Source: Actinomycetota bacterium (lineage in GTDB: Bacteria; Actinomycetota; UBA4738; HRBIN12). From it: a stretch of DNA of 64,000 nucleotides. This document shows, piece by piece, positions 23,218 through 54,577 of the stretch. A program made the translations under genes and the position numbers. Each line of letters begins with the position of its first letter. Position 1 is the stretch's first letter. The DNA is taken from contig DASXTX010000052.1 of assembly GCA_036505195.1 (NCBI GenBank), positions 1,272-65,271 of the forward strand, written 5' to 3'. Under the pieces are notes generated by a model that saw only the letters and a program-made list of their open reading frames with translations, did no database searches and was not told the DNA's origin.

Positions 23218-23405
23218 GAGGACCCCATCCCCCTGGCGTCGGCGCGCCCGACGGCCGCCTTGAGCGAGCCGGACCGCCGATCGTCGCAGGGCTCGTCGAA
23301 CGCCGTCGCGCGCGGGCTGAGTGGGCCTGCCGCCCTGACCCTCGTTCCGTTCCGCTCGCTCCCGGCCCCTCCCCCACCGTCTACGCTGATGAGCGTTCGA
23401 CCATC

Positions 23406-23443
23406 GCGAGAGTGGCGGAACGGCAGACGCGCCGGACTTAGGA
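23406..23443 (+). pseudogene. 5' half of tRNA-Leu(TAG), acceptor 5' strand through the anticodon loop; left junction (attL-like) of the island
   Basis: gcgagagtggcggaacggcagacgcgccggacttagga is identical to 46527-46564 of the intact tRNA-Leu, and about 14 nt of upstream flank also match. Identity stops after CTTAGGA. Confidence 0.85.
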
Positions 23444-28314: not shown

Positions 28315-29076
28315 GTGCGCGTTGTCACGTGGAACATGGACCACTGGAAGCATCCCAGGAAGTCGAGTGAGGCGTGGGCTTTTCTCCTCGACGAGCTCCG
28401 TCCCGACATAGCCCTGCTGCAAGAGGCGGTGATTCCAGGTGACGTCCGGCATGACCCCCTGTGGACGCACGCTCGTGAGCGAGGGACCTCCTTGAAGGAG
28501 CTTGCGTGGGGCTCAGCCATACTCTCCCGCGTCGGAACGCCGGCTACGCACCTTGTCATCAGCCCCGAGGACATCGCAAAGAGGGGGGCTGTGCAGGTTG
28601 CGAGTTGCAACATCGCCGGAATCGGCGAGACAACCATAGTGAACATCCATTCACGTCTTGATGACGACAAGCGGGCCGTGCAGAAAGTCATACCGAATCT
28701 CCGCAAGACTTTCGAGATGGTTCTCCCAGCCCTGGGCGAGCGATTCATCGTCGGTGGAGACCTCAACACAGCGAGGTCGCTGGACAGGGTATACGGGCAG
28801 AAGTACGGGCACGGGGACTTCTGGCGCGAAATGGACGCGGGCATCCTGAGAGAGTCGCTCCCTGGCGAGAACGGGGAGCGCCAGTCCTATTGGGGAATCG
28901 CCAAGGGGCCGACCGCGGGCATCCTTCAGGATGACCACCTCTTCTTCGATGCCGAGACATTCAAGCTCGTCAGCGAATCCCGCGTTTGGGACACTCCGCA
29001 AATCCGAGAGCTAAGTGACCATGGTCCAATCGTGGTGGACCTCGACCTCAGCGCCGGTCGAGGCTCAGACACGTGA
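28315..29076 (+). CDS. cassette 7, gene 1: endonuclease/exonuclease/phosphatase (EEP, DNase-I-like) family protein
   Basis: 253-aa ORF: MRVVTWNMDHW.., ..DIALLQE.., ..GGDLN.., ..LSDHGPIVVDL (EEP catalytic motifs). Confidence 0.75.
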   Translation: MRVVTWNMDHWKHPRKSSEAWAFLLDELRPDIALLQEAVIPGDVRHDPLWTHARERGTSLKELAWGSAILSRVGTPATHLVISPEDIAKRGAVQVASCNIAGIGETTIVNIHSRLDDDKRAVQKVIPNLRKTFEMVLPALGERFIVGGDLNTARSLDRVYGQKYGHGDFWREMDAGILRESLPGENGERQSYWGIAKGPTAGILQDDHLFFDAETFKLVSESRVWDTPQIRELSDHGPIVVDLDLSAGRGSDT

Positions 29077-29579
29077 CGAGCGACCAAGCCAGCCCGCTGG
29101 TTGGCGACCTGAGAGACACATGGAACTCCCACTACGCGGAGAATCTCTTCGAACACGTATTCATCGCGGAGGTTCTCCAGGAGTGCGCCTTCGTTCGCAA
29201 GCAGAGGGTGGAGGTCCTTCGAGCAGAGGTTGATGAGTCCGGCTATGACCTCGTTCTCTCGCTGGGCAAGGTCACCCGGCACGTTCAACTGAAGGCCAGC
29301 GCCAGGGGTGGCTCAACCAAGTCCGTCATGGTGAACGAGGCTCTTCAAGAGCACATCGGCGGGTGCGTCGTCTGGATGCTTTGGACCGAGGACGAGGACC
29401 ACCGATGCGACTTCACGTACCGCTTCTTCGACACAGCGGTAAAGCCACTCCCCTCAAAGGTCGCGAAGAACCGGAAGACCAAGGAGCCGAAACCCAACAT
29501 GCGGGTCGTCACTCCGTCGCAGTTCGAGAGAGCAAGCACTGTGGGAGAGCTGGCCTTGCTGCTGTTCGGACCACCATGA
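29073..29579 (+). CDS. cassette 7, gene 2: hypothetical protein, possible PD-(D/E)xK-like fold
   Basis: 168-aa ORF overlapping gene 1 by ATGA. ..EVDESGYDLVLSLGKVTRHVQLK.. looks like a D...(E/Q)-x-K nuclease core. Weak. Confidence 0.45.
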   Translation: MTSDQASPLVGDLRDTWNSHYAENLFEHVFIAEVLQECAFVRKQRVEVLRAEVDESGYDLVLSLGKVTRHVQLKASARGGSTKSVMVNEALQEHIGGCVVWMLWTEDEDHRCDFTYRFFDTAVKPLPSKVAKNRKTKEPKPNMRVVTPSQFERASTVGELALLLFGPP

Positions 29580-29722
29580 CCTCGCCATCTTCCCCCGCAT
29601 AGCGCCACCGGGGGACGCGTTCAGAACCGCCGCAGGGGGGCGATACCTCTTCCCTTCCGGTTGTCTTCCCACTCTCGGCACCGACTAGGCTTCATGTGGT
29701 ACGTGATAGCTGGGAGAGCGCG

Positions 29723-30628
29723 ATGCCAGAGATAACTGCAGAACGGACCGGCGAGTTGATGCGAGGAGTGTTTCGCGTGCTGCTCAATGAGCCCGAAGGG
29801 GTGCAAGCACGTGAGGTTCTCCGGCGAGTTGAGCAAGTCATTCCGCCAACTGAGTTCGAAGCCGCCGATTACCCAAATCGCCCCGGAGTAAGGCGGTACG
29901 AGAAGATAGTCCGCTTCGCCTCTATCCGTCCCGTAAAGGCTGGCTGGCTCGTGAAGGATGGAGGGAAATGGACGCTGACGCCCGAGGGGCGTTCGGCCTA
30001 CGAACGCTATTCCGACCCCGGGGCGTTCACGCGTGAAGCAAGGCGGCTGTATCGGGCATGGAGGCTCGAACAGTCTGACGCTTCCGGCGACGTCGCTGAT
30101 ACAGACGAAGAAGCAGCAGACGAAGTAGCCCCCGACCCGAGAACCACGCTAGAGGAAGCCGAAGAGAACGCTTGGAGCGCCATCGCTGATTATCTGGCCC
30201 GTATGCCACCCTTCGAATTCCAAGACCTAGTGGCGGCGTTGCTGCGTGCGATGGGCTACCACATCGCTTGGACGGCGCCGCCTGGGCCAGACCGAGGCAT
30301 AGACATTGTTGCGTTCCAGGACCCCCTTGGCGCGACCAGTCCTCGAATAAAGGTGCAGGTCAAACGACGAGCAGGACGCATCCCCGCCGACGAACTTCGG
30401 TCGTTTATGGCAGTCCTCGGACAAGATGAGGTGGGTATCTACGTCTCAATCGGCGGGTTCACGAGCGACGCGGAGGTCGAGGCGAGAGGCCAAGAGCGCA
30501 GAAGCGTGACGCTGATTGACATGAGGAGACTCGTGAGTCTGTGGATTGAACATTATGACCGACTGATTGAGGAGGACCGCTCGCTTCTCCCATTGAAACC
30601 CGTTCACTTCCTTACCGCTGCGCTGTGA
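29723..30628 (+). CDS. mrr: cassette 7, gene 3: Mrr-family (type IV) restriction endonuclease
   Basis: Start at MPEITAERT (GGGAGAG upstream). N-terminal Mrr_N-like winged helix (..KIVRFASIRPVKAGWLVKDGGKWTLTPEG). C-terminal FEFQDLVAALLRAMGY..GPDRGIDIVAF..IKVQVKR catalytic core. Confidence 0.8.
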   Translation: MPEITAERTGELMRGVFRVLLNEPEGVQAREVLRRVEQVIPPTEFEAADYPNRPGVRRYEKIVRFASIRPVKAGWLVKDGGKWTLTPEGRSAYERYSDPGAFTREARRLYRAWRLEQSDASGDVADTDEEAADEVAPDPRTTLEEAEENAWSAIADYLARMPPFEFQDLVAALLRAMGYHIAWTAPPGPDRGIDIVAFQDPLGATSPRIKVQVKRRAGRIPADELRSFMAVLGQDEVGIYVSIGGFTSDAEVEARGQERRSVTLIDMRRLVSLWIEHYDRLIEEDRSLLPLKPVHFLTAAL

Positions 30629-30683
30629 TTAAGTCGGAACTCGTGCGATTCGGTCGTAGCCAGGAAGCCCTTCCTTCGAGGCA

Positions 30684-30755
30684 CCGGACTTGGGAGCACC
30701 CGCTCCACGTCCAGCGAGGCGCAGCCTTCGGCGCTGAGCGTACTGCGACGGGCAG
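30684..30755 (+). repeat. cassette-boundary repeat R8
   Basis: CCGGACTTGGGAGCACCCGCTCCACGTCCAGCGAGGCGCAGCC...GCGTACTGCGACGGGCAG. Confidence 0.8.
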
Positions 30756-31025
30756 ATTGCCGGGCATCGGCCGAAGGTCGGTGCTGCGCAAGAGCCGAGC
30801 GCACGGCTCGAGTCACCTCCTCCCCTCTGGTCACGTCACTCCGGAGCTTCGTAGGCACGGGCGGTGCCTCAACGGACCACTTCACGATGGGCCACATCGC
30901 AGACCCGGCCTCAGTCCTTCTCGCCTACGTGCCGACGGTTCTATAGTGGCCAACCCAAAGTTCATGACAGGGCGCCCCGAAATGAAGTCACAAATGCCGG
31001 CGAGGCTGACCAGAGGAAGTGGCTG

Positions 31026-31745
31026 ATGAGGCGGACCGACTTTCGCCTTGCCTCCATTTACATCTCGTGCTCTTTGGTCGAGGGAGCGGTCGACGGTCAG
31101 CAGGCCTATAGAGCCCTTCTGACTCAGTTTGGCTCCGAATACGACGGTGAGTCCTTCTCCCTGCCCGTCCCTTCGGAGGTTCCTGTTCCACCCGAGGTGG
31201 CAACCGCCTCCCTTTCGAGCAAGGACAGAACTCAAACCGCGGAGTTCGGGCGTGGCCGGGTAGCGTTTCGCTGGTCAGCGTCCGACGAGACCAGTCCGAC
31301 GCTCCCCACCGTCGCCACGAGCGTTAGAGAACGGCTTGCCGCCTTCATCGCTCCTGATGCCATAGTGGTCAGTCGCATAGGAGTTGTGGTGACCTTCTTC
31401 GCCGAGGTCCAAAGACCCGGCGAAGCAATCGCTGAAGCGTTCGTCGAGTCGAAGTTCCGTTCTCGTGCACTGGATGACATCGGAGCTCTCGAAATTCACG
31501 TCTTTAGGATGCGTTCACTCCTTGACCGCAACGTCGCAACAAACCACTGGACCCGCGTGCGTTCAGTGAAGTCATCAGGCAACGAATATGACGCCATCAC
31601 GTTCGAGCAGGACTTGAACACGCGAACAGAAGACGCGAGCGAAAGTCGGTTCACTATTGCTGATATCAGCGGTTTCGTTTCGGAACTTGACGAAGTAGTG
31701 GAACGGACGTTCTTGGACTATTGGGGAGACGCGACTGATGAGTGA
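31026..31745 (+). CDS. cassette 8, gene A: hypothetical protein
   Basis: Start set at MRRTDF (ATG 31026, GAGGAAG upstream). 239 aa. No family recognised. Confidence 0.5.
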   Translation: MRRTDFRLASIYISCSLVEGAVDGQQAYRALLTQFGSEYDGESFSLPVPSEVPVPPEVATASLSSKDRTQTAEFGRGRVAFRWSASDETSPTLPTVATSVRERLAAFIAPDAIVVSRIGVVVTFFAEVQRPGEAIAEAFVESKFRSRALDDIGALEIHVFRMRSLLDRNVATNHWTRVRSVKSSGNEYDAITFEQDLNTRTEDASESRFTIADISGFVSELDEVVERTFLDYWGDATDE

Positions 31746-32532
31746 GGAAACGCTCACGAAGTCGTTTACTCCCAGTGACTCGGTCTTCCGGGTAGGGGAC
31801 CTGTCTCCTTCGGGTGGTTTCGAGACGGGAAGACCACAACAGGGGGGTGCAATTGCTCTTTGGCATGCAGTCGTCGAGAGACTGGCCTCAGCGCCGCAGG
31901 ATGAGCTAGCTTCCGCCTATGTGAAGGAACTCTTGCCAGACGTGTTAGTCGAACTGGCGAGTTGGAGTCCCGGACAGACTTTCGCGAGGTTTCAGAGGAT
32001 GTGGTCGTCTACACAGCTTCACCGCTCGAGCGCGACCTGGCCCCTTGCACCTCTCGACTTCGACTATGTGAAGTTGGCCTACCGGGTGTTGCAAATTTCG
32101 CGGCGTGAAGCGCACGAGTGGTGGGACCGAGAGAGCACGTCGACAGCGAGCGACTCAGCGGTTCCGCTTGCGAGAAGTTTTCAGCGTCTTGGACAGCTCG
32201 CCCAGCTCGAGCCCAACTGGGACTCATATGGTGGGTTGCCTTTGGCTCAACCCGCAATGGCTGCGGCAGCAAGCCTCGTGCTTCGAGCGAGGGAGGATAG
32301 AGACGCAACAACGGCGGAGCCCTTTCACATCGCCCCGCTGTCTGATGGCGGCATTCAAGTCGAGTGGCGCAGCTTGAGGGGCGCTCTCGAAGTTGACATC
32401 AGTCCGCGGTCTGAGCTTGGTTTCCTCCTGGTCAGAGGCACAGGTGACTCCAGGACATTCGAGGAAGAGGAAGGTGTCACGCCCGACAGGGTTGTGGGCC
32501 TGCTCGAGTGGCTCCTTTCATCCAACGAGTGA
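31738..32532 (+). CDS. cassette 8, gene B: hypothetical protein
   Basis: 264-aa ORF overlapping gene A by 8 nt. No family recognised. Confidence 0.5.
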   Translation: MSEETLTKSFTPSDSVFRVGDLSPSGGFETGRPQQGGAIALWHAVVERLASAPQDELASAYVKELLPDVLVELASWSPGQTFARFQRMWSSTQLHRSSATWPLAPLDFDYVKLAYRVLQISRREAHEWWDRESTSTASDSAVPLARSFQRLGQLAQLEPNWDSYGGLPLAQPAMAAAASLVLRAREDRDATTAEPFHIAPLSDGGIQVEWRSLRGALEVDISPRSELGFLLVRGTGDSRTFEEEEGVTPDRVVGLLEWLLSSNE

Positions 32533-32900
32533 GTGACCCCGAAGTCGTTTTGGTTACTGAAGCCGACGAGCTCTACCGGAGGCTGCATTGGACCGCCGTT
32601 CGAGATGGCGAAGTCCTGTCTGTTGCGTATAAGAGGTCGGGAAAGCCAGCCTCCACGTTCTCAGTCGACATCGCGAGGCTCACCACACCTGAAACCTCCG
32701 TGGGGCTTGGACCTGCGGGCTCGGGAGTGGGGATTTTGGTGGCGGGAGTGCCGATGGGTTTGGGTTTCAGCGTGACTCACTCCCCAGAGATGGGGAACGA
32801 TGCTCACGCAAATGTCACCGGCGACAATACGAAGCAGAAGTGCAGACTACTTGCCGAAGCGACCAACATCCACATCGAACCCGACGCCCCCGAGCAGTAG
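32529..32900 (+). CDS. cassette 8, gene C: hypothetical protein
   Basis: GTG 32529 overlaps the gene B stop as GTGA. The track ORF starts at 32508. About 123 aa. No family recognised. Confidence 0.45.
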   Translation: MSDPEVVLVTEADELYRRLHWTAVRDGEVLSVAYKRSGKPASTFSVDIARLTTPETSVGLGPAGSGVGILVAGVPMGLGFSVTHSPEMGNDAHANVTGDNTKQKCRLLAEATNIHIEPDAPEQ

Positions 32901-33020
32901 CCCGATTATCGCAGGACGTCTGCCTTCAGCTTCGGGACTGCTTGCAACCACCCCCTAGGCATGGCCCTACAGATGGCCCGCCCTCCCCTCCCCAAGCAGA
33001 CAGGAAGCGCGCACCCAAAC

Positions 33021-33087
33021 CACCTGTTCGAACTCCCTGTCCTGCGCAAGGCGCACGCCTACGGTGCCAGAGGTTCTGCGACGGGCA
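33021..33087 (+). repeat. repeat R9 (degenerate; lacks the CCGGACTTAGGA core)
   Basis: ..GAACTCCCTGTCCTGCGCAAGGCGCACGCC...GGTTCTGCGACGGGCAC keeps the central hairpin and the right-end GCGACGGGCA box only. Confidence 0.6.
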
Positions 33088-33198
33088 CCATGCTGAGGCG
33101 CCGTTGACGGCCGAGCACCAGCGGAAGCCGATGCTCAGGCGTTGGCCTGCACATGCCGACGTTTACCGGAAGGGCATCCTCATGCAAGGGGAACGACA

Positions 33199-34962
33199 AT
33201 GGAGACAGGAGCACCCCCGCGGGACCGAATCTCTGAAGGTACGGGCGTTAACGACGGGGGCAATGAGCCGCGAGGCGGATTTACGGAAGAGGAATACGAC
33301 AATCTGGTTTGGAGCCGCGGCATTCGTCGCGAAGTCGCGGAAGGCGCGTTTCTGCGATACCAGCAAGGCGACATCGGCGGGGTCCTGGCCTTCGACCCAA
33401 CCATTGAGCAACGAGAAGCTGAGGAGTTCATCCGCGGGCTAGTGAACAGAGCCCCAGGCCTAGTTCTACGCCGATGGCCTGTACCGGGAGCCGACGAGTT
33501 CATCACAGCTGAACTTCGCCCAGACTGGCCCGTCTGGACCGGAGCAATGCCGTCCTGGACGCGGCGGCATAGTCAACTCGAAGGCCCGGAGCGGTCGAAG
33601 CACGTCATGGGAGACAAGGTGACGGCGGACGACGTTCGAAGGGCTACGACGACCGATGAATACCAGGAGTGGCGAAAGTGGGCACTCGAGAGGTCCTTGT
33701 GCCTAGAGGAGTTCGGAGCCGACCACTTCGGTGTCGACACGGAGGACGACCACCTCCACTTCGGCCCAATCATCGCGAAGTACCTGTTCCAGGCGGCGCC
33801 GCTCATCACCATCGTCGAGCCGGGAACGCCGCACTCCAATGCCGACATGAACGGCTTCTTCCCAAGGTATTACCACCACGAGCGACGGCACACGCGGAAG
33901 AGGACCAGGTCGTTCAAGCACCCGGCCAAGGCCGAGGCGTTCCTGCGAACCGTGCGGGAGAAGTGGTGGGCAAGGCTCGACGAGGTGGTGGGCGCTCGAC
34001 CGTACAAGGTGACGTGGTGGGAGGGCCACTACTCGGACATGGAAGATAAGCGGGAGCTCGCATTCATGGGCGACGTTCTGCACCCGCACTTCATCCGAGT
34101 GAAGGACCGCGACGTTGTGCTGGCGCGAAGGCTGAGCATTCATCCCATGAGCCGAGAGAGGCTGCAGGAGGTCCACCGGGTGTTCTTCGCGTTGGAGGGT
34201 TGCCTAAAGGAGGCGGCGCTCGTCAGCGCTGGCGAGACAACATTCTCCTGCCCGAGCGTGAGCCTGTGGAACGCCTCGGAGCTCGAGAACTTCGCTAGGC
34301 ATCACCTCGGCGGCAAACGCGTATTCGTCGTCTGCGACAGCGATTGGGACCGAGCGGATGACGACTCGGTGGTTCTGCAAGCCCTCCTTGCGCGCGACCG
34401 ACTGAGGTCCTTCGGCATAGACGCTCATGCCGCGGCACCGCCTCCCGGCGGCAAGGCCTGCGAACACAAGGATAAGAAGCACGGAGTGGATGACCACCTG
34501 GGACCATGTCCCGGAGAAGGGACTGTGGACGACTTGCTGGTCATCGTGCGAGAGGCCGCCCAGGGTCTCACGGAGTGGCTGGCCAACCATCCTCCTCGTG
34601 GCGACACAAGGAATCGCGCCGATGGTCGCAAACGTGATGGCTTCATCCTTCGATGGCTGTCGACGCACGCCGGCAGCGACGGGGTCACGACCGTCTCCGA
34701 CGCAACTATTGCCAAAGCGCTCCAGCCGCAACTCGGCTCGCCGACCACCGACGCTGCTCGGCGGGCCGTAGAGCGCGGTATTCGCTCACTCATCAAGCGA
34801 GGAGCCATCGAGGAGGTCGAGCCGCGCAAAGAGCGGGTCCGTTGGCACTTCCGGAAGGAATACCGTGACTGGTCGGCCAAGCTCCGCGTCGCAGAACAGC
34901 TCCGGGGCCGGCAGGCGGTTGTTCGCTTGGGCGATTTTCCCTCGCCGCCGGCCACGCAATAG
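33199..34962 (+). CDS. large element-borne protein with a Toprim/DUF3854-like region; candidate replication/primase protein
   Basis: Start set at METGAPP (ATG 33199, AAGGGGA upstream). The ORF is open from 33142. ..GKRVFVVCDSDWDRADDDSVVLQALLARDRLRSFG.. looks like a Toprim acidic cluster. The C-terminus is wHTH-like (..IAKAL..AARRAVERGIRSLIKRGAIEEV). Confidence 0.5.
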   Translation: METGAPPRDRISEGTGVNDGGNEPRGGFTEEEYDNLVWSRGIRREVAEGAFLRYQQGDIGGVLAFDPTIEQREAEEFIRGLVNRAPGLVLRRWPVPGADEFITAELRPDWPVWTGAMPSWTRRHSQLEGPERSKHVMGDKVTADDVRRATTTDEYQEWRKWALERSLCLEEFGADHFGVDTEDDHLHFGPIIAKYLFQAAPLITIVEPGTPHSNADMNGFFPRYYHHERRHTRKRTRSFKHPAKAEAFLRTVREKWWARLDEVVGARPYKVTWWEGHYSDMEDKRELAFMGDVLHPHFIRVKDRDVVLARRLSIHPMSRERLQEVHRVFFALEGCLKEAALVSAGETTFSCPSVSLWNASELENFARHHLGGKRVFVVCDSDWDRADDDSVVLQALLARDRLRSFGIDAHAAAPPPGGKACEHKDKKHGVDDHLGPCPGEGTVDDLLVIVREAAQGLTEWLANHPPRGDTRNRADGRKRDGFILRWLSTHAGSDGVTTVSDATIAKALQPQLGSPTTDAARRAVERGIRSLIKRGAIEEVEPRKERVRWHFRKEYRDWSAKLRVAEQLRGRQAVVRLGDFPSPPATQ

Positions 34963-43088: not shown

Positions 43089-44129
43089 TCAAGCGGGTCT
43101 CAGCTCATCTGGCACCTTCTCAAGCGTCCACACGCGTCCCCTGTAGTAGTCGAAGAGCCACAGAAAGCCGCGCACGAGCCGAAGGACATCCTCTAACTCG
43201 TGGAGGTCGATGCGCGCTCGACCGGAATGGGAGACCACGTTTCGCACCCCGGTCCAGTCGCGCACGGTGTTGAGGAAGCTCTTCGGAGGAGCACCTGCAT
43301 GTCCATTCACCGGGAGCCGGGCGGGGAGGAGAGGCAGGTACTCACCTAGCAGGCGATGGAGCGGCGGCGTCTGGATATTTTCAACGAGCCATCGAGCATT
43401 TGGAACCAGGTCAGCAACCAGCTCCTTGAACCCAACCTCAAGAGCGGCCATGCCCACCACGACAGCACTCCTAGGGTTCGTGAGCCGCTGCTCCCACGCT
43501 TCTCGATAGAGCGTATGACCAAGCGGTTCCGAGCCTCCATCGGCCACGATGTTTCTCACGTCATCTTCCACTTCTGGCCCGACGCTCAGATTCCCTCGGC
43601 TCAAAACAAAGACATCTCCCGCTACTGAGAGCGGATGGAAGTCTTCGCCGTCGAACGACCACTCCACGCCCTTCGATGAGAATGGAGAATGGACTCCCTC
43701 AGTTCCGGTCCGCCACCTTAGAACGAGCACCGTTCGGCGGAGGACGTCGACAAGCTCCAGCCAGGACTGCCTTGTGAAGTCCTGCCACGGTTGCGGCATG
43801 AAACGCGGCGGAACGAGGAACCCCGGTGTGATGTTGCCTTCCGGGTCAATGTCCTCAGACCAGGGCCACTCCAGCGGCTCCGGTGGCGCTTCCGGAAGTC
43901 GGTTGTTCAGCAGCGATTTGAACATCTCCATGATTCGCTGACTGGCTTCCAAGACAGACGTCGCAACGACGAAAGCGTCTTCGCGCCTGTGACCGACCCC
44001 TAACTCGTCGTCAGTCGGCAGACGGATTTCGACCCGAACGTGATGAGGCCCCCCGAGGTCGAACACTAGGGGTTCCTGCTCGTCTCGAAGCCACAGCTCC
44101 GAGGCGATGTACGTGGCGCGAAAGTGCAT
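43089..44129 (-). CDS. hypothetical protein with C-terminal HEPN-type RNxxxH motif
   Basis: 346-aa ORF. ..TVRDWTGVRNVVSHSGRARIDLHELEDVLRLVRGFLWLF.. carries the canonical R-N-x3-H in a helical C-terminal region. The N-terminal 250 aa are unassigned. Confidence 0.55.
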   Translation of the reverse strand: MHFRATYIASELWLRDEQEPLVFDLGGPHHVRVEIRLPTDDELGVGHRREDAFVVATSVLEASQRIMEMFKSLLNNRLPEAPPEPLEWPWSEDIDPEGNITPGFLVPPRFMPQPWQDFTRQSWLELVDVLRRTVLVLRWRTGTEGVHSPFSSKGVEWSFDGEDFHPLSVAGDVFVLSRGNLSVGPEVEDDVRNIVADGGSEPLGHTLYREAWEQRLTNPRSAVVVGMAALEVGFKELVADLVPNARWLVENIQTPPLHRLLGEYLPLLPARLPVNGHAGAPPKSFLNTVRDWTGVRNVVSHSGRARIDLHELEDVLRLVRGFLWLFDYYRGRVWTLEKVPDELRPA

Positions 44130-45695: not shown

Positions 45696-46460
45696 TCATC
45701 CGAGCAAGGCCACCGCTGCCACCAGGCGCTCGTCGCTGACGGCTAGATACCGCATCGTCGTCTGGATGTTCGTGTGCCCCATCAGCTCCTGAACGGTGCG
45801 GATGTCCACGCCCCGCTGGAGCATGTGGGTTGCGAAGGTCGCTCGGAACTTGTGGGCGTGGGTCCGGATGCCCGTACGCCGTTGTAGCTCCCGCATCCAG
45901 TCCTGAACCCGGTGCTGACACGCCACGATGAGTGTGTTCCGCTTGCCCGGAGGCAGCTGGCTCAGCTCGATGACGGCGGCTCGGCTGACCGGTCCAAGCG
46001 GAACCGCTCGGTGGACCTGGAGGCCGCCTGGGCGCCGCTTCGTGTCTCTCAGGATGATGTGGGTGTCCTTGACGTCCTCGAGAGAGATGCCACAAACCTC
46101 CTGGAGACGAGCGCCCGTCGAGTAGAGAAGGTCGATGACTGGGCGGCATCGACGATGCACGTCGAGCGCCTCCTCACGGATGGTCGCCAACTCCTCGACC
46201 GAGAACGCGCTCGGGACGGGTTGATGCATCGGGCGGACCCAGGGGATGTCCAGCGTCCTCCCCAGGTTCACCCTGAAGTGCCACACGAGCCCAGCACGAG
46301 CGTTCCGTCTGGTCGCCTCGGACGAGCGCTCGCTGACCCATGTAACTGGGTCTGGCTGCCCGTCTCGCATCCATCGCTCGACCACCTGACGGTAGTCCCT
46401 CTCGGTCCTGGGTGAGAGCACCCCGACCACCTCCTCGTTGGTCCGGTGCGCCTCACGCAC
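45696..46460 (-). CDS. short tyrosine recombinase/integrase (Xer-like, no obvious arm-binding domain)
   Basis: 254-aa ORF (GTG start). ..[11 protein letters not shown].., ..[14 protein letters not shown].., ..[14 protein letters not shown].. supply the catalytic R, H-x-x-R and H...Y. Confidence 0.85.
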
Positions 46461-46526
46461 GTCCGGTGCGTCACTTGTTTCCAGGCCCCTCCCTCAGCCT
46501 TTACGCTGGTCAGCGCTTCGACCATC

Positions 46527-46609
46527 GCGAGAGTGGCGGAACGGCAGACGCGCCGGACTTAGGATCCGGTGCCCGAAAGGGCGTGGGAGTTCGACTCTCC
46601 CCTCTCGCA
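46527..46609 (+). tRNA. tRNA-Leu (anticodon TAG), intact, long variable arm
   Basis: Acceptor GCGAGAG/CTCTCGC. Anticodon arm CCGGA-CTTAGGA-TCCGG. Variable arm GCCC-GAAA-GGGC. T arm GGGAG-TTCGACT-CTCCC. Discriminator A. Confidence 0.85.
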
Positions 46610-47174
46610 CCCCCCTCTTGCTCCAGACCTACTCGGTTGGGGGCGTCCCAGGCCGAGGTGGCAGCCGATGTCGTCCCAACCCAACGGATGGCGGAAAGGT
46701 TCCCGGACGTCATTGGTGGACGCGTTGTCGGGACAGCCAAGTGCTCGGTGACCTCGCGGTGCTGCCATCGCCCGGACATCGCAGGACAGCATGCCCGATC
46801 TCGGAACCTCGTTCACACGGCGTGACGTCTGGAATCGTCCGGATCGTGTTGGTGCAAGCCACGGCACATTCCACGAGTGAAGGCCAGCGCGTTTGACAAG
46901 CCATCATCGCGGGTGTTCGGTCCGCGTTAACGGCGCCGGGGGAGAAATGAAGGGAACGCGCCTCGGAGTGGGCTTCGCCGACCGACTCCTTTGCTTCCTC
47001 GGCCCCGGTTCCGACGAGCCGCTGCTCTCCTCCGCTCCCGATCGCGATCCATTTCGGCCGAACCGGTCGAGCGACATCTCGACGCCGTGGCCTGGACGCG
47101 GGCAGCCAGAGGAGGTTGCCAGCGGCGACTCGTAAGCCAGTGGGCCAAGACGGGGCCAAGACGGGAGCGAAGAC

Positions 47175-50100
47175 ATGAACGAGAGCCCGAACGAGCAGGG
47201 ATTTCGCACCCAGACAGTCGTCGACGGACACGACCCCGCCCCGCGGTTGAGGCGACGTCCGTGGCTCTTCCGCACGCTCAGGTTCGCCCCGCTCGCATTG
47301 GCTGTCGCGCTCGCGTTCCTGGCGAATGTGCTGCAGGCCGTGCCGCCTTCCGAGCGGTCCCGTGTCCTGCTCGACGGATCCACCACGAGACTGGTCTCGC
47401 ACAACGACCCGACCCCGTCGGGGGCCGATCCCCTGTACCCCCTGAACCACACGGTCGACGGCAAGACCGAGTCCGTCGGCACGCCCCCAGCCAACTCCGG
47501 GTTCGAGCAGGCCGGCGGGCTGGTGGGGACCCCGCCCGTCAACCACGACCTGCAGACGGCTCCGGTCGACTCGGTGACCGTCCCCAACGGGGACTTCGAG
47601 ACGGGCACGTTCGCGAACTGGACGTTGACGGGCTCGCCCACGATCTCCTCGGATCAGACCCGCGGGTACTGGGCCAGCCTGGGGTCCGGCCATGTCATCA
47701 CCAGCTCGGCCATCGCGGTCCCCTCCTCCGCCCAGGCCCTCACCTACCAGGTCGGGTACCTGACCACCAACAACTACAGCTGGGTCAAGGTGTACGTGGT
47801 GAGCGGCGCGGACTTCGCGACCTCGACGCTCGTCAAGGACGACTACTGCTTCCGATGCGGCTATTGGTCCACCAACACGCTCGATCTAGGGGCCTACCGT
47901 GGCCAGACGATCAAGCTCAAGTTCTCCCAGTACTCCGGGACGATCGGGATCAACGACGTCAAGGTCCAACAGGTCTTCCCGGGCTTCGACGTCTCCGGGA
48001 CGTACTTCCGGGCCTTGGACGGCACCGACGCATACGCGTGGATCCAATCGGGGGGCTGGCTGACCACGGCCCAGCCGTTCGCGGTGCACCCAGACGCCCA
48101 GTCCGGCACCGTGGAGATGAAGGGGAATATCGCAAGCAGCCAGTACCAGATCCAGATCGCGACGGGACCGAACTTCTCGACGTACACGACTGTGGCCTCG
48201 GGCATCGCGCCCGCCTCGTGGCAGGGGGTCCGGTTCTACCTCGGCACGACGTACGCGGGGCAGCAGATCAAGCTCCGGGTGAGGTCGGCATACAACTGGA
48301 TCGCCGTCGACGACCTCGGGATCCAGCAGCAGGACCTGCCCGGCTGGAGCACGAGCGGGGACACAAGGAGGATCGACGACGGGTCCGGCAACCACTACGC
48401 CACGACCAACGGGACGATCACCTCGAGCGCGTTCCAGATCCCGGCCAACGCCGAGAACCTGAGCTTCCGGATCCGCTCCGAAGGCGACGTCACGCAGACC
48501 ACCGTAAACCTGCTGCGCGGGACAGATTTCTCCACGGTGACCCAGATCCACTACGATGCTGCCACCCCCACCTGGAAGACCGTGATCAGCGGGGTGGCCC
48601 CCTTCGCCGGGGAGACCGTGAAGCTCCGGTTCGTCAAGGGCATCGGGGGCAGGCTGGCCGTCGACGACGCCGGGCTCATGGAGTCGGTGCTCCCCGGGTG
48701 GACGCCCAACTCTGCCGATGCCCTGGCCACGGGAGAGAACGCGAACGGCACCTTCGCCACGCCGGCCGGCGACGACTCGGCGATGTTCCTCCGGTCCAGC
48801 TGGATCTCCACGGCGATCGTCGATCGGACCGGCTTCGCCGAAATGCGCCAGTACGCGATCTCGTACGAGTTCGGCTCCGGCGGAGGGCTGCTCCAGCTGT
48901 TCTGGGTCGACGCCGGCGGGAGCTTGAACGTCTTCCAGGACGCGGCCAACGGCGCGACCGCGTATCGGACCCGCTACTTCTGGCTCGCGGACTTTATGGC
49001 GCAGCGCGGCCACTTCGTGGTGAAGCTCACGGGTTCCGGCAGCAAGTTCTACTCGATCGCCGACAACGTCGCCCGCCAACAGCTGTCCGAGCCCTTCTCG
49101 CGTAAGGTCGGCCTGGGGATCGACACCACCACCGGATCGGTGGCCTTCGCCGAGAACGGCATCACCATCCCGGGCCCGATCCCGCTGTCGTTCACCCGCT
49201 ACTACAACGCCCACGCCGACCGCAGGGGACCGCTCGGGTACCGATGGTCCCACACCTACGAGACGCACCTGGAGATCCTGGCCGACGGGGATGCCGGGGC
49301 GGTGTACGGATCCGGTCGCGAGGAGTTCTTCAACCTCAACACGTTCAACGGGACATTCGCCCCCGCCGACTCGAGGGTGCACTCCACCCTGGTCAAGAAC
49401 GCCGACGGAACGTACGCCCTTACCACGAAGGCCAACCTGATCTATCGGTTCACCTCCACCGGCGTGCTGAGCGCGATCGAGGACTTGAACGGGAACACGG
49501 TGAGCCTGGCGTACGACCCTGAGGGGCGGCTGTGGACCGTGACGGGGGCGGGCGGCACGAGCCTCACTTTCAGTTACGACGCACAGAGCCGGCTTTCCAC
49601 CGTGACCGATCCCGCCAACGCGACCTACACGTTCGGGTACGACGCGAACAACGACCTGGTCTCGGTGACGGACCCGCTGAACGGGGTCCGGAGCTATGTC
49701 TACAACCACCACCGGCTCACGCGTGTGACCGACGAGAACGGCGACCTCGTCGTGGACAACACCTACGACGACTACCACCGTGTCATCTCGCAAACCGACG
49801 CGGCGAACAAGACGATCTCGCTCGCATACGACACGCCGGGCATGGGTGCGACGACGGTGACCTTCCCCGACCAGGGGATCGGGAAGTTCTACTTTGACCG
49901 CTTCGGCCGCACGACCGACACGATCGACCCCACCGACCGTCGGACCAGGTTCCTGTACGACTCAAACGGCAACCTGGACAAGATCGTTGACTCGGGCAAC
50001 GCGGCCTGGGACATGGCCTTCGACGCGTCGGCGGACCTCACCTCGGCCACCGACCCACTCGGCAACCCGATCTCGCTCGCCTACAACGCCAAACACCTGC

Positions 50101-53100
50101 CTACCTCGATCACCGACGCCCGCGGCAACACGACGACGATGACCTACGACGCCGACGGGAACATGACCTCGCTCACGAACCCGCTCAACAAGACCTGGAC
50201 CTACACCTACGACGTAGCGGGCTACCTGCTCACTGAAACCGACCCACTTGACAAGACCACTACGTACACGTACGACTCCGCCGGGAACCGTCTGACCAAG
50301 ACCGATCCCCTGAACCACACGTGGACCTACACGTACGACGCGGCGAACCGGCTGAAGACCGAGACGGATCCCCTCGGCAACACGACAACGTACTTCTACG
50401 ACCTCCTCGGCCGGATCGTGTCAGTCCGAGACCCCTTGAATCGAGAGGCCACGTTCCTGTACGACCTCGCCGGGCACCTGCTCCGGGCCACCGATCCGCT
50501 CGGCAACCAGACGAATTGGGCCTACGACGACCGCGGCCTCGTCAGCACCAAGACCGACCCAGCGGACAAGGTCTGGAGCTACACGTACGACGAGAACCGC
50601 AACATGACCTCGGTCACCGACCCGCTCAACAAGACGACGACGTACGGCTTCGACGACGCGAACCGGTTGACGTCGATCAGGGACCCGCTCGGGAGCAATA
50701 CGACCTATTCATACGACGCAGCCGGCAGGCTCGCATCGACGACCGACCCCCTGAACCGTGTCACGTCATACACCTATGACGCAGCTGGACATCTCAGCCA
50801 GACCACTCTGCCCAACATCGCGACACTCGGATACGCCTACGACGCGAACGGCAACTTAACCTCGGTCACGGATGAGCTCGGCAACGCTAATACCAGCGCC
50901 TACGACGCCGCGAACCGGCTGACGTCGACCACCGATCCCTTGAACAAGACCACGTCCTACGGCTACGACGCCGCGGACCGACGTACTTCGGTGACCGACC
51001 CGCTCAACCGCACGACCGTCTTCGCCTACGATGCGGCCGGACGGCTGGTCTCAACGACGGATCCCCTCAACAAGACCACAACGTACGGGTACGACATCGC
51101 CGACCGGCGGATCTCCGTCACCGATCCGACGAACCGAACGACGACAGTCGGCTACGACGCGGCCGGGCAGCTCCTCGCGGTAACCGACCCGGGCGGCAGG
51201 ACGACGACGAGCGCGTATGATGCCGCAGGCCGCCTGGCCTCCGTCACGGAGCCATCGGGAGCGGTGACGAGCTACGGCTACAACAGCCGCGGTCTGCTGA
51301 CCTCGGTCACCGACCCGCTGTTCAAGGTCACGACCTACGGCTACGACGACGCCGGCCGGATGAGCTCGGAGACCGACCCGCTCAACAACGCGACGACCTA
51401 TAGGTACGACGGCGCGGGGCGGCTGGCCACGATCACAGATGCCCTCGGAGGGGTGGTCACCCTCGGCTACGACGCCGCCTCGCAGCTCACCTCCGTCACG
51501 GACACCCGCAGCAAGACGTGGAGCTACGGGTACAACGCCCTCGGAATCCGCAACTCCGTCACGGACCCGCTGAACCGACAGACCACCTGGGGCTACAACG
51601 CGGCCGGCCAGCTCACGAGCCGAACCGACGCCCGGGGGATCCAGACCAGCTACGGGTACGACGCCGCCCGCCGGCAGACCTCGGTCGCCTACCCGGGTGG
51701 CTCGGTCGGCTACACCTACAACGACGCGGGCGAGCGCACCCAGATGGCCGACCCCACCGGCCAAACCACGTCCACCTACGACGCGGCAGGCCGTATCACG
51801 GCCGTGAGTTCGCCGCGGGGCCAGATCACTTACACGTACGACTCGGCCGGACGACGGGCGTCGATGACGCTTCCTGGCAACCGTACGCTGACCTACGACT
51901 ACAACGCTCGGGGCCTGCTTTCCTCGCTCACGGACTGGCAGGGCAGTGTCACGAGCTTCGACTACGACTCCGACGGCAACCGCACCAAGATCACCCGTCC
52001 GAACGGCGTCGAGTCGGACTACGCCTACGACTCGGCCGGCCACGTGACCTCGATCACACACACGAAGGGCGCGACCACGCTGCTGTCGTTCGCATACACG
52101 TACGACGACGCCGGCCGAAGGACCAGCGTCACTACGCCCGAGGGCACCGAGAGCTACTCCTATGACTCGCTCGGGCGCCTCACGCAGGTGAGCTACCCCG
52201 GCGGCCCGACCGTGTCCTACACCTACGACGGCGCCGGCAACCGGAAGACCGAAACGCGAGGCGGGAATCCGACGAACTACGATTACGACGCCGCTGGCCA
52301 GCTCCTGACTGTCGGGAACAAGATCTACACGTACGACGCGAACGGGAACCTGACCCAGGCCGGCAGTGACTCGTTCACGTGGGACTATGACAACCGTCTA
52401 ACGCAGGCCACAATCGGGACCCACACCGCGTCCTACGCCTATGACGGCGACGGCGTCCGCTCCCGGGCGACAGTCGACGGGAACCAGTCGAACTTCCTCG
52501 TCGACACGCTGGACGGCCTGCCGACGCTCGTCGACGATGGGTCGAAGGCCTACCTACACGCCGATGGGGCGCTCTCCGAGATCAGTGCCGGCGGCGCAAC
52601 GCAGGTGCTCGCTGACGGGCTCGGGTCCGTCCGCGGGCTGGCCGACACGAATGGCAGCCTCGTCGCCTCACAATCCTACGAGGCGTTCGGGACGCCACGG
52701 ACGACGAGCGGTACGTCGAGCCTGTTCGGGTTCACGGGCGAGCCGACCGATGCGACGGGGCTCGTCTATCTCCGAGCTCGTTCGTTCGATCCATCTATGG
52801 GGCGTTTGCTCTCGGCCGACACCGTGCAACCGAACGCCAACGGAACGCAGGGCTACAACCTGTATGCGTACGTAGCGAACAACCCAGCGACCTGGGTAGA
52901 TCCGTCTGGCCATTCCTTCGACGTCGATCAGGTTGATGACTTGCTCTATTACTACGCAACCCACCCCGAGGCTCTTGCCGCGTCGATTGCGGCAATCGAA
53001 GCGTACGCGAATTCCGGTGCCATTCAGGCGGGCGGAGCTGGTGCGGCGATCATCATTACAGTCATCGCGTTCATCCTGACCGCCGCCGTCCTTATGTGCT

Positions 53101-53669
53101 TCACGCTCGGCCCGTGCGACATAAGAAGCACGCAAACGGCCATCGACAGGCAAGGCTCAGCGTGGCCAGGTGATCGTGTTTGGACGGCGGCCGACCTTCT
53201 CGAAGCGGCCAAGGAGTGGCCCGCGCCAGCAACTGTCGCGGATCCGACGCCCGATCCTGTACCCGGACCTGAACCCAGGCGCCGCCCCAGAGCTGGTGAG
53301 AGTGTCTATAGAGTGTGGGGTGGGCAACGAGGGCCGTTTGGGGCATCGTGGACACCCGATGACCCACAACAGTTCGGACCCGAAAAGTTCCGAGATCTTG
53401 CTGGCCTCCCGGATCGCGTCAATCACGGCAACTTCATCACTGTCGCCATCCTCAAGGACCCCCGAGTTGTGCCACCGTCGGGTTCGCATCCGTCGCTTCC
53501 GATGCCCGAGGGCCCCGATGCATGGTGCGATTACCAGGGGATTGAGGTGTGGGAGTATGAAATCCCGAACGCAGCAGCGGCCATCGCGAGCGGCAAAATC
53601 GTGATCGTGAATGTCCTTGGGCCCCTAAACCCCCCATATGGCGGGCGACCACCGAATGGCTGCCCGTGA
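47175..53669 (+). CDS. RHS/YD-repeat polymorphic toxin (2164 aa)
   Basis: N-terminal TM or signal anchor, then four ~120-aa tandem modules, then dozens of YD repeats (..YxYDxxGxL..). RHS core end ..GEPTDATGLVYLRARSFDPSMGRLLSADT..YAYVANNPATWVDPSGH, followed by a ~260-aa variable C-terminus. Confidence 0.9.
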   Translation: MNESPNEQGFRTQTVVDGHDPAPRLRRRPWLFRTLRFAPLALAVALAFLANVLQAVPPSERSRVLLDGSTTRLVSHNDPTPSGADPLYPLNHTVDGKTESVGTPPANSGFEQAGGLVGTPPVNHDLQTAPVDSVTVPNGDFETGTFANWTLTGSPTISSDQTRGYWASLGSGHVITSSAIAVPSSAQALTYQVGYLTTNNYSWVKVYVVSGADFATSTLVKDDYCFRCGYWSTNTLDLGAYRGQTIKLKFSQYSGTIGINDVKVQQVFPGFDVSGTYFRALDGTDAYAWIQSGGWLTTAQPFAVHPDAQSGTVEMKGNIASSQYQIQIATGPNFSTYTTVASGIAPASWQGVRFYLGTTYAGQQIKLRVRSAYNWIAVDDLGIQQQDLPGWSTSGDTRRIDDGSGNHYATTNGTITSSAFQIPANAENLSFRIRSEGDVTQTTVNLLRGTDFSTVTQIHYDAATPTWKTVISGVAPFAGETVKLRFVKGIGGRLAVDDAGLMESVLPGWTPNSADALATGENANGTFATPAGDDSAMFLRSSWISTAIVDRTGFAEMRQYAISYEFGSGGGLLQLFWVDAGGSLNVFQDAANGATAYRTRYFWLADFMAQRGHFVVKLTGSGSKFYSIADNVARQQLSEPFSRKVGLGIDTTTGSVAFAENGITIPGPIPLSFTRYYNAHADRRGPLGYRWSHTYETHLEILADGDAGAVYGSGREEFFNLNTFNGTFAPADSRVHSTLVKNADGTYALTTKANLIYRFTSTGVLSAIEDLNGNTVSLAYDPEGRLWTVTGAGGTSLTFSYDAQSRLSTVTDPANATYTFGYDANNDLVSVTDPLNGVRSYVYNHHRLTRVTDENGDLVVDNTYDDYHRVISQTDAANKTISLAYDTPGMGATTVTFPDQGIGKFYFDRFGRTTDTIDPTDRRTRFLYDSNGNLDKIVDSGNAAWDMAFDASADLTSATDPLGNPISLAYNAKHLPTSITDARGNTTTMTYDADGNMTSLTNPLNKTWTYTYDVAGYLLTETDPLDKTTTYTYDSAGNRLTKTDPLNHTWTYTYDAANRLKTETDPLGNTTTYFYDLLGRIVSVRDPLNREATFLYDLAGHLLRATDPLGNQTNWAYDDRGLVSTKTDPADKVWSYTYDENRNMTSVTDPLNKTTTYGFDDANRLTSIRDPLGSNTTYSYDAAGRLASTTDPLNRVTSYTYDAAGHLSQTTLPNIATLGYAYDANGNLTSVTDELGNANTSAYDAANRLTSTTDPLNKTTSYGYDAADRRTSVTDPLNRTTVFAYDAAGRLVSTTDPLNKTTTYGYDIADRRISVTDPTNRTTTVGYDAAGQLLAVTDPGGRTTTSAYDAAGRLASVTEPSGAVTSYGYNSRGLLTSVTDPLFKVTTYGYDDAGRMSSETDPLNNATTYRYDGAGRLATITDALGGVVTLGYDAASQLTSVTDTRSKTWSYGYNALGIRNSVTDPLNRQTTWGYNAAGQLTSRTDARGIQTSYGYDAARRQTSVAYPGGSVGYTYNDAGERTQMADPTGQTTSTYDAAGRITAVSSPRGQITYTYDSAGRRASMTLPGNRTLTYDYNARGLLSSLTDWQGSVTSFDYDSDGNRTKITRPNGVESDYAYDSAGHVTSITHTKGATTLLSFAYTYDDAGRRTSVTTPEGTESYSYDSLGRLTQVSYPGGPTVSYTYDGAGNRKTETRGGNPTNYDYDAAGQLLTVGNKIYTYDANGNLTQAGSDSFTWDYDNRLTQATIGTHTASYAYDGDGVRSRATVDGNQSNFLVDTLDGLPTLVDDGSKAYLHADGALSEISAGGATQVLADGLGSVRGLADTNGSLVASQSYEAFGTPRTTSGTSSLFGFTGEPTDATGLVYLRARSFDPSMGRLLSADTVQPNANGTQGYNLYAYVANNPATWVDPSGHSFDVDQVDDLLYYYATHPEALAASIAAIEAYANSGAIQAGGAGAAIIITVIAFILTAAVLMCFTLGPCDIRSTQTAIDRQGSAWPGDRVWTAADLLEAAKEWPAPATVADPTPDPVPGPEPRRRPRAGESVYRVWGGQRGPFGASWTPDDPQQFGPEKFRDLAGLPDRVNHGNFITVAILKDPRVVPPSGSHPSLPMPEGPDAWCDYQGIEVWEYEIPNAAAAIASGKIVIVNVLGPLNPPYGGRPPNGCP

Positions 53670-53686
53670 GCGGATCGACGGCCTAA

Positions 53687-54577
53687 ATGACCAATTTGAC
53701 GCTACTCGGCAGAAGGGTCGTTTCACGACATCACCATGAGCTCCTGCTGTTCGATGCAGACTCTACGGATCTTCTGAGCTTCCACATCGCGGGGGTATTG
53801 TGGACCGACGTCGTGCGTGTGGCGGAGCGCTCCGGAATCATGGAAGCACAAGACGCAGTGACGAGTCACCCGGTTCTCCTGGTGATCCGCCTCGCCCCAC
53901 GATTCGAAATCACGGGGCGGCTCGAGTTCGCCCCCACACCGACTTGGGATGGATGGCCGGAATCGTGGCGAGCATTGCCAGCGGCATACGCGACGAATGT
54001 CAACGGGCGCGACAGGATGTTGTTCTTGCTCGGACACGACGTTAAGGCCACGCGCCGCATTCAACTACCACTCAATCCCGGGGAGGCCGAGGCCGAAGGC
54101 GTTCCGTTCGCTGTCCAGCTCCCAGACGCTGAGTCGATTGTCGTGTGTACAGGCGGAGGCCGGTATGTAACACGAATCTCGGCGACTACTGGGGAGGTGC
54201 AGCAGGTTCTCGAAACGCCCAGCTCACTGCTTTCACGACCGTGCCCGATCGTTCTGGACGACACGCTCTGGGTCGCGGCGTGGGATGCCGTGTTGCGGAT
54301 CGATACGGAGTCCGGGGAAATCCAGCGTCTACCTGTGGCCCGCCTCCGGGAGGATCAGGTGATCGACTTCGCACTTGATCCCTCGCAACGTCGGGGCGCG
54401 GTTGCGCTAGCCTCCTCGGGCGCAATCGTCCTCTTTGACATTGATGCCATGGAGATATTGAGAGTCGCTGACACGGCCGAATCTCTGCAGAGGATATGGA
54501 TCGTCGATGACTGGCGGTATGTAGCGCAGGTATGGGGTGAGCCCCGATTCGTGACCGGCTCGTTCCGCGACACTTGA
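53687..54577 (+). CDS. hypothetical protein; candidate RHS-toxin immunity protein (by position only)
   Basis: 296-aa ORF beginning 18 nt after the RHS stop, same strand. No family recognised. Confidence 0.45.
   Translation: MTNLTLLGRRVVSRHHHELLLFDADSTDLLSFHIAGVLWTDVVRVAERSGIMEAQDAVTSHPVLLVIRLAPRFEITGRLEFAPTPTWDGWPESWRALPAAYATNVNGRDRMLFLLGHDVKATRRIQLPLNPGEAEAEGVPFAVQLPDAESIVVCTGGGRYVTRISATTGEVQQVLETPSSLLSRPCPIVLDDTLWVAAWDAVLRIDTESGEIQRLPVARLREDQVIDFALDPSQRRGAVALASSGAIVLFDIDAMEILRVADTAESLQRIWIVDDWRYVAQVWGEPRFVTGSFRDT

Follow-up and report, generated by a model that had tools for sequence, protein, structure and literature searches.

Gene anatomy of the three-gene cassette

The DNA analysed here (the window) is a 64,000-nt stretch of a contig from a soil metagenome-assembled genome (MAG; 3.2 Mb, 272 contigs) of an Actinomycetota bacterium. 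The subject of the analysis is its cassette 8, a unit of three overlapping genes designated A, B and C, which are the sole plausible genes between the repeat copies beginning at 30681 and 33011. The genes, the conserved part of B and the two repeat copies are the following.

31026-31745, + strand: gene A, ATG start, 239 aa; GAGGA at 31013-31017, 8 nt upstream of the start
31738-32532, + strand: gene B, ATG start, 264 aa; GGAGA 8 nt upstream of the start
32140-32529, + strand: C-terminal 'WDSYG' domain of B (residues ~135-264), conserved, putative toxin-binding module
32529-32900, + strand: gene C, GTG start, 123 aa
30681-30776, + strand: upstream cassette-bounding repeat copy, 69% identical to the reference copy and beginning with a 12-nt anticodon-loop core
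33011-33106, + strand: downstream cassette-bounding repeat copy, 65% identical to the reference copy

A and B overlap by 8 nt (31738-31745), the TGA of A occupying 31743-31745, and B and C overlap by the 4 nt GTGA, in which the GTG of C (32529-32531) interlocks with the TGA of B (32530-32532). GC content by codon position follows a high-low-high pattern in each of the three frames (A.60/.48/.63, B.63/.51/.63 and C.62/.48/.68). The ATG of A sits within a longer GTG-started frame from 30864, and the 162-nt extension thereby added upstream is without coding pattern (.57/.61/.61). An alternative start of C, the GTG at 32508, would yield 130 aa; in public gene calls A is present as a 223-aa version, 100% identical, and C as 123 aa. 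Within 30500-33400 the search for promoter-like sites was negative, and terminator-like sites did not exceed what chance would give. The sizes and overlaps of the three genes, as given by an earlier reading made from the letters alone (the sequence-only reading), are borne out by the open reading frames (ORFs), the sequence and the codon-position GC, and the three genes form a real, coherent module. The same reading had placed no recognisable domain in them; this holds for Pfam and NCBIfam, whose scans gave no match at E<=1 for A, B or C, but not for the partial PADLOC matches of B and C and the fold of C presented below.

An interpretation as chance ORFs or decayed genes devoid of function would agree with the lack of any homologue of A and with the fact that no RNA run is listed for the locus. 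It is barely tenable in view of the coding GC pattern in all three frames, the confident models, the conserved homologues of B and C with their invariant residues, and the precision of the overlaps.

Gene C and its pairing with gene B

C was modelled with AlphaFold2 from a 14-sequence alignment (pLDDT 95.3), and the model consists of six strands, at residues 14-19, 43-48, 66-71, 81-84, 93-97 and 113-116. Its comparison by Foldseek returned nothing at E<=0.001, the top rows being KptA/Tpt1 (9ldi, E 0.086, prob 0.97), AvrPphF ORF2, TreTu, pierisin, ParT and cholera toxin. By VIA-align, 151 of 48,161 representative chains were recovered at Z>=2, with 9ld3_A (Z 7.8, rmsd 3.5 A, 93 residues) and 1s21_A (Z 7.5) as the best rows, and nearly all of the 50 rows listed belong to the ADP-ribosyltransferase (ART) superfamily, including diphtheria-type toxins, Tse2, TreX, TreTu, Tne2, DarT, ParT, RES and pertussis toxin. 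Nine residues are invariant across the 14 sequences (R17, R18, A33, S45, V46, H93, G98, L108 and A109), of which R17/R18, S45 and H93 belong to strands 1, 2 and 5 respectively, the three strands that carry ART triads as described in PMC9825190. Because the match list is uniform and conserved residues fall on strands 1, 2 and 5, the ART fold of C is accepted, and C is predicted from its model to be a minimal ART-fold protein with a split beta-sheet. The first two triad positions fit R-S-E, while the His at the third fits none of R-S-E, H-Y-[EDQ] and H-H-h; unorthodox ART triads exist, that of TreTu being an example (PMC9825190). Given the His at this third position, activity is something we infer for C; its most likely action would be NAD+-dependent ADP-ribosylation of an essential target, or destruction of NAD+, with toxicity when C is free.

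True homologues of C numbered three in a word-indexed protein search, and 12 homologue loci were found in one-genome-per-species contigs, mostly of Cyanobacteria and Chloroflexota; in its own phylum, a single further genome out of 400 had C.

The AlphaFold2 model of B (mean pLDDT 73.8) has a helical N-terminal half of low confidence, followed over residues ~140-264 by a part with pLDDT 87-99 that is made of two helices, five strands and one helix. In an exhaustive HMMER search of 1.84 billion representatives, this WDSYG domain was recovered 1879 times at E<=1e-3 and 338 times at E<=1e-10, the 1879 representatives being clusters at 50% identity. Among the best 150 hits listed, the aligned query stretch starts at residues 74-156 and ends at residues 233-264, the hits are 91-358 aa long, and nearly all of them are matched close to their own C-terminus. 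W161, P195, P200 and W210 are invariant and the D-S-Y-G that follows W161 nearly so. The N-termini of B relatives, on the other hand, vary, with DUF433 in one and UPF0175 in another of 99 members scanned, both being antitoxin-type domains; no Pfam model lies over the shared domain in these 99. The word-indexed protein search with B gave 4 partial matches.

With the B model, Foldseek found nothing in the PDB at E<=0.001, and profile searches of PDB sequences with the B and C alignments, as well as with that of the TIGR04255 family considered below, returned solely spurious low-complexity rows or rows at E>0.6. The best VIA-align row for the B domain is TriTu (7zhm_D, Z 7.2, rmsd 2.6 A, 79/87 residues), a Z-score which alone lies within the noise range; the same solved complex also holds TreTu (7zhl_A), which is matched by C. 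In BFVD, the best matches of the B model are small uncharacterised phage proteins, of which only the first (E 2.4e-4, TM 0.78 by target, 114 aa) passes E<=0.001, the next three being at E 1.4e-3 to 1.4e-2. B is best described as a putative antitoxin or immunity protein.

The linkage of the two genes was examined at the C-homologue loci. In all 10 of the 12 loci for which upstream DNA was available, the ORF immediately preceding the C homologue, in the same orientation, has the B domain (HMM E 1e-31 to 1e-55), and the C homologues are free-standing ORFs of ~117-147 aa placed after B in all 10. B and C are thus adjacent, co-oriented and co-conserved small genes with the neutraliser first, an arrangement taken as a criterion of type II toxin-antitoxin (TA) modules. 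In complex prediction with B(135-264) and C, an ipSAE of 0.87 was obtained in 3 of 3 runs, compared to 0.40 for the best control; in the benchmark of the ipSAE mark, 116 of 157 solved complexes and 2 of 215 mismatched pairs reach it, counts which are only rough here since alignments of the present analysis were used for the prediction. The runs show contact agreement of at least 92% and a pLDDT of at least 89 for the partners. The predicted interface is made of the NWDSY loop (160-164) and strands 196-209 on the B side, and of R18, F44, S45 and helix 101-106 on the C side. This prediction supports binding between B and C, and it is quite likely that they constitute an ART-type toxin/neutraliser pair.

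The closest structural analogue, as judged from the models, is TreTu/TriTu. TreTu is described as an ART toxin domain of ~113 aa from a Salmonella Rhs protein, with an unorthodox triad, and TriTu as a beta-lid over its catalytic cleft (PMC9825190; PDB 7zhl/7zhm). TriTu is the best match of B (Z 7.2), TreTu is matched by C (Z 4.4), and the predicted B-C interface covers cleft residues, but there is no sequence similarity and identity in the structural alignments is 8% and 15%. Moreover, TreTu forms, in the description given, the tip of an Rhs protein that is secreted, and the gene for its immunity protein lies downstream, whereas C is free-standing and follows its neutraliser.

The presence of KptA/Tpt1 among the top structural matches, through their NAD+-binding lobe, brings up another possible role, in which C would be a non-toxic NAD+-dependent enzyme akin to Tpt1/KptA that modifies or repairs nucleic-acid ends, with B as its regulatory subunit. 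However, C aligns to the C-terminal lobe only (residues 59-180 of chain 9ld3_A) and its 123 aa leave no room for the N-terminal lobe of Tpt1, while the predicted contacts of B with conserved cleft residues fit inhibition. The mobile island, the sporadic distribution (2/401 genomes) and the antitoxin-type N-termini of B relatives also better suit a conflict module, so that an end-modifying or repair enzyme appears very improbable.

As for other known pairs, DarT-DarG, ParT-ParS and RES-Xre/MbcT-MbcA resemble B-C in that an NAD+-using toxin of the ART superfamily is checked by the product of the adjacent gene, and structures of DarT, ParT and RES are in the list of C at Z 3.0-3.7. A, B and C nevertheless have no matches to the Pfam families of DarTG, ParST and RES-Xre, B is neither a macrodomain nor an Xre/DUF2384 protein, and the cassette has a third gene; these systems share with it the superfamily alone.

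The nearest named entity is PDC-M32 of PADLOC, matched weakly and in part. PDC-M32A matches solely the C-terminal domain of B (E 9.6e-8, positions 262-338 of 375), a second PDC-M32A model matches B at E 2e-6, and these matches span model positions ~260-350 of 375. PDC-M32B matches residues 11-57 of C (E 8.2e-4, model positions 3-49 of 123). The likeness lies in adjacent genes matching the two components, in a PDC-M32B model that also has 123 positions, and in defence contexts; on the other side, the matches cover no more than about a quarter of the PDC-M32A model, those of C are limited to residues 11-57, and B, with 264 aa, has a different N-terminus. Full-length PDC-M32A was found in none of 301 genomes of the phylum, and in the literature found PDC-M32 appears solely as a listed PADLOC hit in Sinorhizobium prophages (PMC12429752).

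Gene A, recurring triads and viral relatives of B

A search with A in 5.8 billion clusters matched solely A itself. In 400 other genomes of the phylum nothing convincing was found, the best being a frame with 4 stops (4.5e-4 per genome), and tblastn against phage records gave no match. The ESM Atlas model of A (pTM 0.82) nonetheless resembles a TIGR04255 cluster (TM 0.72 by query and 0.69 by target, 218 residues aligned), and not one named SecB. A thus probably shares the fold of TIGR04255, while lying outside the family by the family's defining test. No mention of TIGR04255 or DUF6941 was found in the literature searched, and supplementary tables of defence-system surveys, which lie outside that search, could list the family by another name.

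Genuine TIGR04255 members do occupy the position of A upstream of B-C-like pairs. Of the 401 genomes sampled from the phylum, 25 have TIGR04255 genes, that of the window not being among them, and these genes usually head small operons (loci L016-L043). In 6 of 27 such loci (L017, L024, L025, L038, L039 and L040) a B-domain gene follows directly, the two genes overlapping by 4-25 nt. The third gene is C-like in L039 by HMM (2.5e-7) and in L017, L024 and L025 by hhalign (prob 93.1, E 3.1e-7, 90 columns); in L038, L040 and L086 the third genes show co-linear C-like motifs by eye, which with hhalign prob of 1.7-8.9 are suggestive only. The B alignment matches 7 of 401 genomes of the phylum, and of the six other than that of the window, five are these TIGR04255 loci. 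The same order was observed outside the phylum, in a Thermoanaerobaculia MAG (acidobacterial, L012) with TIGR04255 (3.3e-28), then B and then a decayed C, and in a viral contig (L084) with an integrase, TIGR04255 (6e-48), B and a C-like gene (3e-13).

In the 10 close loci, by contrast with the constant B-C pair, the first gene is TIGR04255 in one, DUF6941 in one (L008), a ~102-aa protein in three and nothing obvious in five. The ~102-aa ORF (L003, L004 and L006) is unrelated and overlaps B by 8 nt, as A does. The conserved core of the system is therefore the B-C pair, and its first position is a variable accessory slot. The coupled operon announced by the sequence-only reading is upheld by the overlaps and, for B and C, by their pairing at 10/10 loci; A has no homologue and stands in a position where the gene varies. 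Conservation as a gene neighbourhood applies to the B-C pair and to the TIGR04255-headed versions found elsewhere, and not to A itself.

Other first genes and candidate relationships were also considered. In an IMG/VR contig (L067:302-2330), a ClpP-like serine protease of SDH type (PF01972, 6.7e-17) comes before a 208-aa B and a 123-aa close homologue of C. A relationship to TIGR04255 or A was rejected for the ~102-aa genes that come first in cyanobacterial triads and for the 220-aa first gene of L086 (hhalign/BLASTP prob <=0.3, E>=0.2). The idea that PDC-M32A is a fusion of TIGR04255 and the B domain was not supported, four TIGR04255 proteins having no PADLOC match and 15 longer B-domain proteins no NCBIfam match.

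The second gene of TIGR04255 operons is not always of B type: of 13 such non-B second genes scanned, 6 encode an Xre-type HTH protein (HTH_3, E 6e-9 to 9e-3), followed by proteins of 177-295 aa that have no Pfam match and among which, in a set of 11, BLASTP links two groups of three. A 'QGD...CD' motif was noticed in these third genes, by eye only. Taken together, this pattern suggests that TIGR04255 proteins stand first in modular units of three genes, the neutraliser/effector pair behind them being exchangeable.

The B domain is also found in viruses. When IMG/VR was scanned with the B alignment, 20 loci were obtained, all 20 with a B-domain ORF and 17 with no C-like third gene seen; most of the ORFs are short and stand-alone (77-169 aa), with a few longer ones of up to 451 aa. 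In a 192-kb IMG/VR contig (L070:2974-3862), a Macro-domain gene (PF01661, 6.9e-10) directly follows the B-domain gene and overlaps its end, and in L076:2863-4268 an RNA ligase gene (2e-13) comes next after the WDSYG-domain gene. Both are single cases, and they fit phage-borne antidotes to an ADP-ribosylating toxin. The stand-alone phage copies may accordingly serve in counter-defence against ADP-ribosylating or RNA-damaging toxins.

For the function of a three-gene unit, the best analogue is CmdTAC, none of whose three families is common to the cassette. CmdTAC is described as a toxin-antitoxin-chaperone phage defence with an mRNA ADP-ribosyltransferase, in which the SecB-like chaperone senses a capsid protein (PMC11618068). 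As in that account, the cassette would comprise a toxin of ART fold, an antitoxin that neutralises it and a further protein in control of the antitoxin. The differences concern each component: CmdT carries an H-Y-[EDQ] triad and resembles exotoxin A, whereas C has 123 aa with R/S/H at the triad positions; CmdA is reported as largely unstructured, whereas B has a folded beta-rich domain; and CmdC is SecB-like, whereas A is TIGR04255-like, and no Pfam match at E<=1, to SecB or otherwise, was seen for A, B or C. The gene order also differs, being toxin-antitoxin-chaperone in CmdTAC and accessory-neutraliser-toxin here.

On balance, cassette 8 is considered a probable tripartite module of ART toxin, neutraliser and accessory protein for defence or cassette addiction. 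Several observations weigh against this reading. All structural Z-scores are below 8, a range which VIA-align itself flags as common, and the third triad position of C is His (H93), compared to Glu/Asp/Gln or a hydrophobic residue in named ART clades. A solved TreTu-TriTu complex exists, and the score of the B-C prediction may partly reflect likeness to it. The PDC-M32 matches are weak and partial, PDC-M32 being itself a candidate system; the module, searched via B, was not found in 60 related genomes, and tblastn of C and of the B domain gave no match in phage and plasmid collections. As regards A, no match to the TIGR04255 NCBIfam model (cut-off 30 bits) was found at E<=1, hhalign against seven TIGR04255 proteins gave prob 0.2, and the structural link comes from a single Atlas lookup, not from a model searched against the PDB. 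In addition, the first gene is not conserved among the closest relatives of C, and A may be dispensable or unrelated to B-C. That A is a working third partner is judged about evenly balanced.

Island context, proposed mechanism and implications

Cassette 8 is located in a ~23-kb low-GC island (23396-46611), flanked by a perfect 48-nt direct repeat (23396-23443 = 46517-46564). GC content is 0.68-0.74 over the first 23 kb of the window against 0.57-0.66 at 24-46 kb, with the lowest bin at 31-32 kb (0.573). The other features of the island with assigned positions are these.

46527-46611: tRNA-Leu(TAG), its 5' part covered by the 48-nt island-bounding repeat
45696-46460: tyrosine integrase gene, adjoining the tRNA-Leu
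within 28315-30628: endonuclease/exonuclease/phosphatase-family (EEP) protein (8.8e-9)
within 28315-30628: 168-aa ORF of no family
within 28315-30628: Mrr-type restriction enzyme (Mrr_cat 7e-23; PADLOC PDC-S02 1.4e-41)

By repeat search and alignment, a ~80-95-nt repeat was located at 23430, 24167, 24988, 26040, 26647, 27699, 30681 and 33011, with an extra degenerate copy near 44104. It opens with a 12-nt core common to the tRNA-Leu anticodon loop, and its alignment comprises 9 copies plus the tRNA-Leu. These repeats divide the left half of the island into gene cassettes. No Rfam family was matched by the repeat, and its alifold structure shows covariation in 1 of 17 pairs. The arrangement looks like an integron-like or tRNA-targeted cassette array. 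As had been proposed from the sequence, cassette 8 is the second largest, the 2330-nt spacing from 30681 to 33011 being the second longest of the repeat intervals, and the array is indeed a defence-rich mobile one, a tRNA-Leu island with Mrr, type III restriction-modification (R-M), an integrase and a serine recombinase.

In metagenome contigs, the repeat at ~27.5-27.8 kb has a word depth of 160-190x, compared to ~9x for unique DNA, and many different loose ends, which together indicate that the repeat is common to many other cassettes in these soils. In assembled contigs of four soil/sediment runs, the stretch was recovered in the probable source sample and elsewhere in pieces, the uncovered parts in runs X3 and X5 and the short-sided joints at repeats being uninterpretable.

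The neighbouring cassette (28315-30628) consists of three coupled genes, those listed above, and the serine recombinase and the type III R-M pair lie farther right in the island. Immediately right of cassette 8, a 606-aa ORF (33142-34962) has no Pfam, NCBIfam or PADLOC match; its true start is probably later, and only its longest frame overlaps the repeat copy at 33011-33106. Just outside the island, at 47175-53669, lies a gene for an Rhs/YD-repeat protein of 2164 aa with 28 RHS repeats and DUF6531, followed (region 47175-54577) by a 296-aa ORF without Pfam match that may be the immunity gene of this protein.

With such a protein 14 kb away, and with B matching TriTu and C matching TreTu and TreX, which are Rhs toxin tips, the cassette could be viewed as an orphan polymorphic-toxin/immunity unit used in competition between bacteria, C being a toxin tip that the Rhs protein close by could take up or shed, and B conferring immunity to it. 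This is very improbable: the order of neutraliser then toxin is the reverse of that of TreTu/TriTu, C begins at strand 1 of its fold (residue 14) with no pre-toxin or recombination stub, the Rhs gene is beyond the bounding repeat of the island (46517-46564), and C homologues are free-standing after B in 10/10 loci.

For the probable tripartite module, a mechanism can be proposed from what was computed: the anatomy of the genes, the conservation of B and C as a pair, the ART fold of C, the interface predicted between the two and the triads that recur elsewhere. A, B and C would be produced from one message by coupled translation, and the WDSYG domain of B would cap the NAD+ cleft of C, which would then be inert, as TriTu caps TreTu. 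A might stabilise or monitor B, or sense the trigger, a role proposed by analogy with the CmdTAC chaperone. Once B is lost or displaced, C would ADP-ribosylate an essential target (protein or nucleic acid) or burn NAD+, and the cell would stop. Phage infection could act as the trigger, as could a protease (cf. the SDH-type one of L067) or the end of expression once the cassette has been lost. The outcome would be to abort phage infection or to make the cassette or island hard to lose, the same mechanism serving for both, and the two purposes are mutually compatible.

Toxin-antitoxin cassettes stabilise chromosomal integron arrays, and the same B-C mechanism could act purely in addiction, protecting the cassette or island against loss with no anti-phage role. 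Such a function would suit a cassette that is one of an array set between repeats in a tRNA-Leu island with an integrase, the antitoxin-first order typical of type II TA modules, and the triads L084 and L050, which adjoin integrases. On the other hand, B and C match, weakly and partially, a PADLOC candidate defence system, the neighbouring cassettes encode restriction-type defence, and the viral stand-alone B-domain genes, by Macro-domain and RNA ligase genes, hint at counter-defence. Addiction as the only role is thus rather unlikely, while anti-phage defence as the main role is a serious possibility that falls somewhat short of an even chance. The candidacy for a new immunity or addiction system, put forward in the sequence-only reading, is in this way strengthened by the ART fold, the predicted B-C binding and the recurring triads, and tempered in that an ART toxin with its neutraliser is already a known combination.

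ART-fold toxins checked by the product of a neighbouring gene are indeed an established theme (DarTG, ParST, CmdTAC, TreTu/TriTu). What is new here is a putative accessory partner not described before and a very common predicted neutraliser domain that has no name. The WDSYG domain, for which Pfam has no name, often occurs by itself, as a small protein, in viral contigs and in BFVD, and its phage copies are a lead in the search for phage antidotes against ART toxins. C, at 123 aa, ranks with the smallest predicted ART-like domains encountered, and has an unusual Arg/Ser/His set at the triad positions and no Pfam model; if it is simply another TA toxin, the result would be a useful annotation and no surprise.

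A broader proposal, offered tentatively and doubtful as a whole, is that TIGR04255-type proteins, including orphan look-alikes such as A, head widespread, undescribed systems of accessory/sensor, neutraliser and swappable effector, of which the cassette would be the ART-armed version, while others would pair an Xre-type HTH protein with unrelated effectors, and the phage WDSYG copies would be antidotes to the ART toxin. For TIGR04255 this would supply a first functional context, as the gene that repeatedly comes first in operons of three whose other two members are exchangeable. Should A-type proteins be sensors or stabilisers, they would represent a second three-part architecture of toxin control, independent of SecB-type chaperones.

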